Assembly (NCBI GenBank): GCA_049323435.1
Contig: JBMOMX010000020.1
Coordinates: 53,665-117,664 of the forward strand
From: Pseudomonadota bacterium
Lineage (GTDB): Bacteria > Pseudomonadota > Alphaproteobacteria > UBA11222
Direction: 5' to 3'
Length of the DNA stretch: 64,000 nt
This document shows, piece by piece, positions 27,176 through 29,338 of the stretch; position 1 is the first letter of the stretch; every line of letters starts with the position of its first letter. Under the pieces are notes generated by a model. That model made no database searches. It was not told where the DNA came from and was given only the letters and a program-made list of their open reading frames with translations. A program made the position numbers and the translations under genes.

Positions 27176-29338
27176 ATGGGCAATGCATTTGGTTCGAATG
27201 AGCTTTGGGTCATTGTCAGCACCATTTTGGTTATTTCCATGCAGGCGGGCTTCTGCTGCCTTGAAAGCGGTTTAGTCCGGGCCAAGAACTCCATCAATGT
27301 CGCCATCAAGAATGTCATAGATTTTTGTGTCGCCAGCCTGCTGTTCTGGATGTTTGGCTTTGGCCTGATGTTCGGTCTCTCGGCAGGGGGCTGGGTCGGG
27401 GTTACAGACTTCCTGGTTGATCCGATGGCGGCGAATGGTTCAGATACCCTGAACCCGGCGATATTTTTCTTTTTCCAACTGGCGTTTTGCGGCACTGCGG
27501 TGACGATTGTTTCCGGGGCCGTCGCTGAGCGCATGAAATTCAGTGGCTATCTGATTACTTCCGTGCTTGTTTCCGGGCTGGTCTATCCGGTATTCGGGCA
27601 TTGGGCATGGGGCGGCGCGCTTAATCCCGATACGCCGGGCTGGCTGCAGGGCATCGGTTTTGTTGATTTTGCCGGATCGACCGTCGTCCACTCCATTGGT
27701 GGCTGGATATCGCTGGCTGCGGTTCTGGTGCTTGGCCCGCGCCTTGGCCGCTTTGGACCCCAGGGCCGCCCGATTGAAGGGCACGATGTGCCGCTGGCGG
27801 CGCTGGGGCTGTTTCTGTTGTGGATCGGATGGTTTGGTTTCAATGGCGGCAGTGTGCTGGCCCTGAACTGGATGGTTCCGCATATTCTGGTCAACACGCT
27901 GCTGGCGGCTGCGGCCGGCGGCATAACCACACTTGCTATTAGCTGGCATCTCAAGTCGATGCCGGATGCGATCCAGATGATGTGCGGCATCCTGGCGGGA
28001 CTGGTTGCCATTACGGCGGGCTGCCACGCGGTGTCCGCTGCTGAATCCGTCATTATCGGCGGAATTGGCGGCGTTGTTTATCTTGCCGTGTCGAACCTGC
28101 TGATACGCCTGCAGATCGATGATGCGGTGGATGCGGTGCCGGTGCATCTCGCTGCCGGCGTCTGGGGAACGATTGCTGTCGCTTTGTTCGGCGACCCGGA
28201 AATTCTGAATACGGGCTTGACCTTCTGGGGGCAGCTACAGGCGCAATTGGCGGGCGTTGCGATGGCCGGGCTTTTTGCCTTCGGGCTTGGCTATATTGCC
28301 CTGAAGGGTGCAAATTCCTTCACAAAATTACGGGTGAGCAATGCAGACGAACGGCGTGGTCTCAATATTGCCGAACATGGTGCGGGCAGTGCATTATTGC
28401 AGGTGCTGGACACCATGGAACAGCAGCGCCAGACAGGCGATTTTTCCCGCTCGGTGCCGGTGGAGCCAAATACCGAAGGCGGCGAAATCGCCAAACATTA
28501 TAATGGCGTGCTAAAGCGGTTTCGTGCAGAAGTCGCCTCGCGTGAGCGGGCGTTGATCAATTTGCGCCAGGCAAAACAGGAAGCTGAATTCGCCAATGCG
28601 TCCAAGTCCCAGTTCCTGGCGAATATGAGCCATGAATTGCGTACACCGCTCAATGCCATTATCGGATTCTCGGAAATCATGAATGAAGGGATGTTTGGCG
28701 CGCTGGAAAACGATCAGTATAAAGAATATGTGAATGATATTCACAATTCCGGACAGCATCTTCTTGGAATTATCAACGACATTCTCGACTTGTCCAAGAT
28801 AGACGCAAACAAGCGGGATCTGGAAGATTCCGAAGTCAATCTGCAAGAAAGCATAGAAGGCACCTTGCGGATGGTGCGCACAAAGGCGCAGGACGCAGGC
28901 ATTTCGCTGACCTGTCATATTCCCCAGGATATTCCCGATATCCTTGGCGACCGGAAGGCCGTTCGCCAAATACTTATCAATTTGGTCTCAAATGCGCTCA
29001 AATTTACCCCTGCAGGCGGCAGCGTTAGCGTAACCGCACAAATTGAGGCAGACGGACGAATTGCAGTTAGTGTCGCCGACACCGGAATTGGAATTGCCAA
29101 GGAAAATATTTCCAGGGTGCTTGAGCCGTTCAATCAGGTCACGGCGGACAACACCAGCATTGCCTACACGTCCGAGGGCACGGGCCTTGGCCTGCCACTC
29201 GTCGTCGCGTTAACGCGGCTGCATGGCGGAACATTTGTTCTTGATAGCGAGTTGGACAAGGGCACAAATGCAACCGTGCGCTTTCCCGCCGCGCGCGTTT
29301 TGCGCAACAATGAAAATGCTGTTGCCGCCGTTGCCTAG
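27176..29338 (+). CDS. Ammonium transporter (Amt) domain fused to a histidine kinase
   Basis: MQAGF..[37 protein letters not shown]; HisKA [21 protein letters not shown]; N box [21 protein letters not shown]. Confidence 0.95.
   Translation: [720 protein letters not shown]

Follow-up and report, generated by a model that had tools for sequence, protein, structure and literature searches.

We analysed a stretch of 64,000 nucleotides, here called the window, from an alphaproteobacterium of the lineage UBA11222 (assembly GCA_049323435.1, contig JBMOMX010000020.1, positions 53,665 to 117,664) and focused on one gene on its forward strand, at 27176..29338. The gene encodes a protein of 720 amino acids (aa) in which an ammonium-transporter (Amt) module is followed by a linker and by HisKA and HATPase_c domains. 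Comparison with proteins of known structure indicates that this fusion, here called the Amt-kinase, is very probably a histidine kinase that serves as an ammonium receptor, in the class represented by Ks-Amt5 from 'Candidatus Kuenenia stuttgartiensis' and Sd-Amt1 from Shewanella denitrificans. The fusion belongs to a sensor kind that is already known but little studied, and it is common in related bacteria.

The Amt module and its receptor signature

The gene was delimited from the list of open reading frames (ORFs), its translation, and its Pfam and NCBIfam matches. Residues are counted here from the first ATG at 27176 (720 codons); an in-frame TTG at 27149 lies nine codons upstream in the same open frame. 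The Amt-like sensor module covers residues 10-403 (27203..28384, forward strand), as judged from Pfam, matches in the Protein Data Bank (PDB), the alignment to AmtB and the helices of an AlphaFold model. The Pfam family Ammonium_transp (PF00909) matches these residues with an E-value of 2.3e-116 and 389.3 bits, the cut-off being 23.2, and the NCBIfam model TIGR00836 is reached with 410.9 bits (cut-off 343.3). In a HMMER alignment to the E. coli AmtB chain, the pore residues of AmtB are all retained: F100/F104, W145, D164 and H172 align to AmtB F103/F107, W148, D160 and H168, while W219, F222, S226 and H324 align to W212, F215, S219 and H318. All nine positions are invariant in 12 aligned orthologs. 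They include what we take, as textbook roles of the AmtB positions, to be the twin histidines (H172/H324), the Phe gate (F104/F222), the outer Trp and Ser (W145/S226) and the Asp (D164). A first-pass annotation, made by a model from the sequence without database searches, had described an Amt domain with both pore histidines and the Phe gate, and this description is borne out by Pfam and by the AmtB alignment.

Using phmmer, we found that the closest solved relative is Sd-Amt1 (PDB 8QJ3/8QJ4/8QPF), which matches with an E-value of 8e-119 over residues 9-451, the linker included. The Amt domain of Ks-Amt5 (PDB 6EU6) is matched with 2.8e-95, the transporter Af-Amt1 with 1.7e-59 and E. coli AmtB with about 1e-38. 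The Sd-Amt1 paper describes a site within the protein that takes up two NH4+ ions (N1/N2), proposes the signature QX6EX15NX2D[F/T]X54-60TX2[S/T] for ammonium receptors, and names a tyrosine (Tyr-27 of Af-Amt1) as typical of transporters. A regular-expression search with the published pattern gave an exact match at residues 23-113 (27242..27514, forward strand), formed by Q23, E30, N46, D49, F50, T110 and S113. Of these residues, Q23, E30, N46, D49 and T110 are invariant in the 12 orthologs, and in the alignment to Af-Amt1 the position of the transporter tyrosine Tyr-27 is occupied by E30. The same search found no signature in the genome's two other Amt proteins. With Sd-Amt1 and Ks-Amt5 as the best solved relatives and the N1/N2 signature present, the earlier proposal of an Amt-kinase ammonium sensor of the Ks-Amt5 kind is supported.

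The Amt-kinase and Ks-Amt5 (kust_3690) share the order Amt, HisKA, HATPase_c with no receiver domain, the Q/E/N/D ligands of the internal site and all transport motifs. According to the Ks-Amt5 paper, the protein binds NH4+ without efficient translocation although the transport motifs are all kept, and its autophosphorylation is NH4+-dependent, up at low NH4+ and down at higher levels. The same text gives no glnK nearby and no identified regulator for Ks-Amt5, and in both respects the Amt-kinase is alike. Unlike Ks-Amt5, the Amt-kinase resides in an alphaproteobacterium with a CtrA/DivK circuit and carries a longer, alphaproteobacterial loop (F-G-x-x-x-x-x-x-Y-K-E-Y) in its dimerization and histidine phosphotransfer (DHp) domain. 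With Sd-Amt1 it has the N1/N2 signature and a homologous Amt module and linker in common, whereas the output of Sd-Amt1 is a GGDEF domain (diguanylate cyclase) and that of the Amt-kinase a histidine kinase. The AmtB-GlnK system of E. coli, which has a counterpart on contig C32 of this genome, shows the same Amt fold and pore residues; it differs from the Amt-kinase in lacking the signature and a fused output module, in being paired with a P-II protein and in its far weaker match.

The cytoplasmic linker comprises residues 404-470 (28385..28585, forward strand), delimited by the phmmer alignment to Sd-Amt1 and by AlphaFold secondary structure. The Sd-Amt1 paper gives a predicted HAMP domain at residues 404-450 of that protein. 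Since the homology to Sd-Amt1 extends through the linker to residue 451, the linker of the Amt-kinase is probably a HAMP-like module. It had been annotated before simply as helical, which agrees with the model, and the homology to a stretch that the Sd-Amt1 authors read as HAMP makes this more precise. The AlphaFold model, built on 12 ortholog sequences, has a mean predicted local distance difference test (pLDDT) score of 75.3. It places eleven long, putatively transmembrane helices between residues 9 and 382. These are followed by short helices at 389-401 and 406-420, a loop and a continuous helix, 434-503, which bears H486; the second DHp helix spans 513-544 and the catalytic domain adopts an alpha/beta fold.

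In the kinase half, the HisKA/DHp domain lies at residues 476-544 (28601..28807, forward strand; PF00512, E 6.3e-23) and the HATPase_c catalytic domain at residues 591-706 (28946..29293, forward strand; PF02518, E 4.5e-25). The DHp domain is almost invariant in the 12 aligned orthologs. Alignment of the H-box with those of the genome's other kinases predicts H486 (28631-28633), within the H-E-L-R-T-P box, as the phospho-acceptor and places T490 at H+4. A threonine at this position has been linked to phosphatase activity in the PdhS2 paper. The H-box and DHp string that had been quoted in the first-pass annotation was found in the sequence.

The kinase core and its family

The kinase half had been assigned to the PleC/DivJ type. 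Among 18,950 NCBIfam models, DivJ (253.8 bits) and PdhS (219.1 bits) are indeed the best kinase models. However, these scores reach only a quarter and a ninth of the equivalog cut-offs (1000 bits for DivJ, NF050805; 2000 bits for PdhS, NF041593), and the match is confined to the kinase core, that is, to positions 274-520 of the DivJ model and 780-1040 of the PdhS model. The HrmK, TorS and BarA models score nearly as well, with 196-214 bits; TorS and HrmK reach about 214, about 40 bits below DivJ. The 25 top-ranking NCBIfam families of each kinase of the genome did not include a PleC model. When the DivJ model was compared over the Amt-kinase and 17 of the genome's other 18 HisKA kinases (all except L020, a fragment of 135 aa), the Amt-kinase had the highest score, followed by L004 (240.7 bits), L008 (212.8), L006 (211.1) and L005 (181.6), with the rest at 153 or below.

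The HisKA pattern had also been called typical of alphaproteobacterial kinases, which applies to one part of it. The longer DHp loop with F-G-P-x-G and Y-x-E-Y is the sole part of the motif that is typical of the alphaproteobacterial set, and the genome's other DivJ/PdhS-like kinases have the same loop type. The rest is generic: the H-box and the string of the second helix recur nearly unchanged in Brocadia, marine group II archaea, Chloroflexota and cyanobacteria, in Amt-kinases as well as in other kinases. At H+7, +8, +11 and +12 the Amt-kinase has N, A, G and F, as do all seven DivJ/PdhS-like kinases of the genome. The specificity residues, that is, these four positions and those of the DivL-DivK contact, were considered as a discriminator and rejected, since many kinases of other phyla share them.

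At E <= 1e-35, matches to the core number 46 in one Skermanella genome (G302), 16 in one of Parvibaculum, 18 in one of Niveispirillum and 4 in one of Brocadia, and identity within this family is a flat 42-50% all-against-all, in a star-like pattern. The Skermanella genome, from which locus L046 derives, stands out by how strongly the DivJ/PdhS-like core type has expanded in it. A quick IQ-TREE run over 80 cores and 250 columns, with support from the Shimodaira-Hasegawa-like approximate likelihood ratio test (SH-aLRT) only and with many open forks, placed the Amt-kinase core in a clade of 11 Amt-kinases (SH-aLRT 96). This clade is nested in one of 47 rows (support 89), whose other members include the genome's DivJ/PdhS-like kinases, three Brocadia kinases and a DivJ-like kinase from genome G070. 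The references of the tree comprise the G070 kinase as the one match to the whole DivJ model and no verified PleC sequence. With 443 bits over the entire model the G070 kinase lies below the DivJ cut-off, and it is the sole full-length match in 301 genomes of the class. In the free tree it falls into a separate clade of 4 rows, so that the Amt-kinases stand apart from the DivJ-like clade. Joining the 11 Amt-kinases and these 4 rows was nevertheless not rejected by the approximately unbiased (AU) test (p-AU 0.597), the tested group having been chosen after the tree had been seen. NtrB and NtrY have another type of H-box and lie far from the Amt-kinase core in the tree.

By these comparisons, the core is part of a large, star-like alphaproteobacterial kinase family which has its own Amt-kinase clade. 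The assignment to the PleC/DivJ type is tenable as regards the best models and the top DivJ score in the genome and falls short as regards the cut-offs; the clades point neither way. The core of the Brocadia relative, which has the same build as Ks-Amt5, is 49% identical to that of the Amt-kinase. It lies within the clade of 47 rows as well, where its closest company is two further kinases of Brocadia (SH-aLRT 97, in the same quick tree), and the kinase halves of the two proteins may not be orthologous. Compared with the PleC/DivJ/PdhS-type kinases (DivJ, PleC, PdhS, CbrA, PdhS1/2), the Amt-kinase has the core homology, the H-E-x-x-T motif and the orphan gene position in common. It differs from them by its Amt sensor, where theirs are PAS or membrane domains, and in not being conserved within its genus.

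Distribution, locus and neighbouring genes

All of the best 120 database matches contain Amt, HisKA and HATPase_c in proteins of 666-764 aa. Identity among them is 51-74%, apart from one match of 99% that is probably the window's own protein. The homologs are mostly annotated as plain 'ammonium transporter', and the named carriers include Parvibaculum, Pyruvatibacter, Phaeomarinobacter, Rhodobiaceae, Minwuia, Algihabitans and Arenibaculum. For the neighbourhoods we used the best 80 of 600 matching stretches, with one genome per species. A kinase core related to that of the Amt-kinase is present in 42 of these 80 loci, in 13 of them together with a receiver in the same chain. Seventeen loci hold non-hybrid alphaproteobacterial orthologs, from Parvibaculaceae, Phaeomarinobacter, Skermanella, Ferrovibrio, Niveispirillum, Thalassobaculum, BAL199, Euryhalocaulis, Parvularculaceae and Rhodospirillales. 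When 301 genomes were sampled evenly over the class, 18 showed a match at E <= 1e-120, and about 15 of these matches cover the full protein.

Within the order, the Amt-kinase occurs in 5 of 13 genomes, and within the genus in 3 of 10. The carriers are the present genome (G000), G312 (95% identical), G313 (73%) and two genomes of the sister genus (63%). In the other 7 genomes of the genus, among them one of only 73% completeness, it was not found. The word 'orphan', used for the gene before, thus fits its neighbourhood, whereas the fusion itself belongs to a widespread family. Amt-kinase fusions are also present in Poseidoniia-type (marine group II) archaeal bins (L065-L068), with kinase cores that are 41-42% identical; there, receiver genes of 119 aa and 318 aa adjoin the Amt-kinases, and an adjacent partner is possible in these archaea.

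Upstream of the gene and on the same strand lie leuC, leuB (24557-25669; TIGR00169, above cut-off) and asd (25722-26744; NF011456, above cut-off), followed by an ORF of 75 aa (26773..26997, forward strand) and a spacer of 178 bp. Downstream, gltD (29399-30817, reverse strand; TIGR01317, 708 bits, above cut-off) and gltB (30845-35479, reverse strand; NF008730, 1746 bits, above cut-off) encode the small and the large subunit of glutamate synthase. They are convergent with the fusion gene, lie 60 bp from it and are followed by a methyltransferase gene. Pfam and NCBIfam searches of the neighbours revealed neither a P-II gene nor a receiver domain adjacent to the fusion gene; the earlier statement that no glnK or response regulator is adjacent is correct, the neighbours being leuB, asd, the 75-aa ORF and gltD-gltB. 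The two other Amt genes of the genome (3.04 Mb, 46 contigs) are found on contigs C32 and C3. That on C32 is directly preceded by a P-II gene and forms a classical glnK-amtB pair, and that on C3 stands alone.

The asd gene is located upstream of the ortholog at loci L042, L043, L045 and L047 and in genomes G312, G307 and G308. In G312 the order is leuB-asd-kinase-gltD-gltB, while the sister genus (G307, G308) and several Parvibaculaceae have leuB-asd-kinase without gltBD, which indicates that the linkage to asd is old and that to gltBD genus-specific. In G313 the kinase lies at another locus with none of these neighbours. Over the related loci, a gltD-like ORF was seen in 1 of 80 flanks and in none of the 17 alphaproteobacterial orthologs. 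The position of the kinase beside glutamate synthase, which the first-pass annotation had emphasised, is therefore real in this genome and in G312 and is not conserved beyond. In another congener, G165 (locus L162, contig C59), asd and gltD are 6 bp apart and the segment corresponding to window positions 26730-29398 is missing, with flanks that are 87-88% identical; the genus carries at least three alleles of the asd-gltD locus.

Two short features flank the gene. At 27001..27064 we found a relic of the gltD 3' end, identified by a repeat search and by aligning it with the ends of gltD from both this genome and G165. It is a 64-nucleotide direct repeat, 86% identical to 29400-29463, and is missing from the same locus in G312. 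The spacer between the fusion gene and gltD (29339..29398) is palindromic, with an RNAfold hairpin of -27.4 kcal/mol. Copies of 37-54 nucleotides with 87-95% identity occur at 6 other places of the genome on five contigs, and related copies in G165, and the spacer seems to belong to a small family of dispersed palindromic repeats. The 75-aa ORF between asd and the fusion gene is known as an ORF only, and its status as a gene is uncertain: it has no Pfam or NCBIfam match and no usable match in the ESM Atlas, it occurs only once in the genome, and it is absent from the same locus in G312, being seen only in this genome's version.

Recent horizontal import was considered on the basis of composition and rejected, since the GC content at third codon positions (0.622) is usual for two-component genes of this genome, with 17% of the long ORFs below it. 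Between 26998 and 27175 there is no sigma-54-type site with up to 2 mismatches, and no sigma-70-like promoter was called upstream on the forward strand. Sites resembling the CtrA box occur in the window at chance level (8 found, 8.0 expected); the one at 27064 is within chance expectation and is not conserved in the orthologs. Rfam gave nothing in or near the fusion gene. Elsewhere in the window it revealed an ffh sRNA motif at 18353-18404 (forward strand; 41.1 bits, gathering score 35) and two tRNA genes, at 4378-4449 (reverse strand) and 58066-58138 (forward strand).

Signalling partner, alternative readings and significance

A receiver domain is encoded within 10 kb in 4 of the 17 non-hybrid alphaproteobacterial orthologs, each time at a different position and mostly on the other strand. 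The genome itself has 19 HisKA kinases and about 24 receiver proteins. PleD (621 bits) and CtrA (417.7 bits) score above their cut-offs, a receiver of 121 aa directly upstream of PleD is taken as DivK, and CckA and CpdR are present. A DivL-like protein of 810 aa (L011, G000:C22:20597-23029) has a Tyr in place of the phospho-acceptor His (S-Y-Q-F-R-T-P), a substitution known from the pseudokinase DivL. Judged from these homologs, the genome holds a complete Caulobacter-type CtrA cell-cycle circuit. The pairs NtrBC, NtrYX, PhoRB, ChvGI and EnvZ/OmpR are found in it as well. In all 5 other Amt-kinase genomes checked, divK-pleD is present, with DivK 65-75% identical. This co-occurrence says little, because all 13 genomes of the order have DivK and 5 of them the Amt-kinase.

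We further looked for a dedicated partner by phylogenetic profile and rejected each candidate: none of the six regulators profiled over the 13 genomes of the order (L032, L040, L039, L037, L026 and DivK, of about 24 receiver proteins) follows the 5/13 pattern of the kinase. L032, L037 and L026 are each present in 12 genomes and L040 and DivK in all 13, and L039 occurs in 8 and is absent from two Amt-kinase carriers. Since the presence of the kinase gene varies within the genus and none of the six regulators varies with it, the partner is most likely a core, conserved regulator and not a dedicated one. The simplest reading is that the kinase provides an accessory input into some core regulator, with DivK and PleD as candidates among several. 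In the literature library searched, no paper joins an ammonium transporter, a histidine kinase and DivK, and the papers retrieved on fused Amt-kinases in Alphaproteobacteria concern other proteins.

Several observations weigh against a receptor. The signature is a blunt test, as the regular expression fits only 53 of the 80 related fusions, the Brocadia relative being one that it does not fit. Moreover, the Sd-Amt1 paper counts working transporters (plant AMT1) among the proteins with the N1/N2 signature; because a signature-bearing plant AMT1 transports, the signature is no proof of a pure receptor. Of the bulky residues F27, Y30 and F34 that block the pore of Ks-Amt5, only the first is kept (F26, L29 and L33 here). 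Pfam finds no HAMP family in the linker at E <= 0.001, which sets it apart from the linker of Sd-Amt1 as read by its authors, and the confidence of the model is middling in the linker and the DHp domain, with a pLDDT of about 50-65 for residues 470-550. A trimeric sensor would also have to drive a dimeric kinase, a problem that the solved relatives share. The Amt-kinase might instead be a transceptor, which both conducts ammonium and signals, as has been proposed for some signature-bearing Amt proteins. We regard this as possible, if rather unlikely. It is favoured by the retention of all AmtB residues needed for conduction and by the smaller residues L29 and L33, and the Sd-Amt1 paper groups the plant AMT1 transporters under the same signature and raises the idea of dual roles. 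Yet Ks-Amt5 too, in the account of its authors, keeps all conduction motifs and shows no efficient NH4+ translocation; the genome already has two signature-less Amt genes, one of them paired with glnK, and the closest solved relatives are both receptors. A direct role in nitrogen assimilation, in which the kinase would control the adjoining gltBD genes or feed NtrBC or NtrYX, is very improbable in our judgement. Ammonium is the substrate of the glutamine synthetase-glutamate synthase (GS-GOGAT) route, the gltD-gltB genes lie beside the kinase here and in G312, and NtrB-NtrC and NtrY-NtrX are present. However, the kinase and gltBD are convergent and thus not co-transcribed. The two are also found apart, G313, G307 and G308 having the kinase without gltBD and G165 having gltBD without the kinase, and just one of the 80 related flanks shows a gltD-like ORF. 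The different H-box type of NtrB and NtrY, their distance in the tree and the lack of a sigma-54 match in the upstream spacer argue against this role as well.

The first-pass annotation had favoured a further reading, namely that the protein is a PleC/DivJ/PdhS-type kinase which acts on DivK and PleD, so that ammonium would feed into the DivK-CckA-CtrA and cyclic di-GMP (c-di-GMP) circuit and not into NtrC. In addition to the model scores and the full circuit in this genome and divK-pleD in the other carriers, it is favoured by the G070 kinase, whose nearest core in the genome is that of the Amt-kinase (213 bits, compared with 212 for the next). Residues H+3, +11, +12 and +15 (R, G, F, I) match those of the genome's DivL-like protein at positions modelled to touch DivK. 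In the literature, PdhS-type kinases are defined by homology of the core, and action on DivK is predicted on that basis. The AU test does not reject a union with the DivJ-like clade, and the lack of a co-lost regulator among the six profiled fits an input into a core regulator. On the other side, the scores are far below the cut-offs and nearly equalled by other models, and the H-box, second helix and interface residues recur in Brocadia, archaea, Chloroflexota and cyanobacteria. The core family is very large and has a star-like pattern, the free tree puts the Amt-kinases in a clade apart, co-occurrence with DivK carries no weight, 7 of 10 congeners do without the gene, sites resembling the CtrA box are no more frequent than expected by chance, and the AU group was named only with the tree in view. 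The tree gives a divided answer, with the Amt-kinases apart from the DivJ-like clade, their union not rejected by the AU test, and NtrB distant. A tie to DivK and CtrA, resting on a similarity that many kinases share, is possible and on balance unlikely. Still less likely is its general form, by which a dispensable, Amt-derived kinase would report external ammonium straight to the DivK/PleD node in dimorphic Alphaproteobacteria. If this were true, nitrogen supply would tune the CtrA switch and c-di-GMP-driven attachment while bypassing NtrBC and the nitrogen-related phosphotransferase system (PTS-Ntr) with (p)ppGpp, and the strains without the gene, such as 7 of the 10 congeners, would have uncoupled development from ammonium.

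For the ammonium receptor kinase that we consider very probable, the following mechanism can be proposed. In all solved members of the family the Amt-like module is a trimer; here it would admit periplasmic NH4+ into a site within the pore, the N1/N2 site built from Q23, E30, N46, D49, F50 and T110/S113, and would bind it there without transporting it efficiently. Occupancy of the site would shift the cytoplasmic end of the last transmembrane helix, and the HAMP-like two-helix linker (about residues 404-450) together with the continuous signalling helix would pass this movement to the DHp domain. As a result, the balance between autophosphorylation of H486 and the phosphatase activity predicted from H-E-x-x-T490 would change, in a direction that might resemble that of Ks-Amt5. 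The phosphoryl group would then be transferred to a response regulator whose gene lies elsewhere in the genome.

Only two ammonium receptors with a transporter fold have been studied so far, and a downstream partner has been identified for neither of them. The Amt-kinases make the question of the partner tractable, as they form a large family, occur in genomes with small and well-mapped two-component sets and offer natural presence/absence alleles within one genus. If the partner is DivK or PleD, the Amt-kinase would add a new kind of input to a cell-cycle circuit that has been studied intensively. If it is not, the case would be a caution against assigning a DivK partnership from similarity of the kinase core alone.

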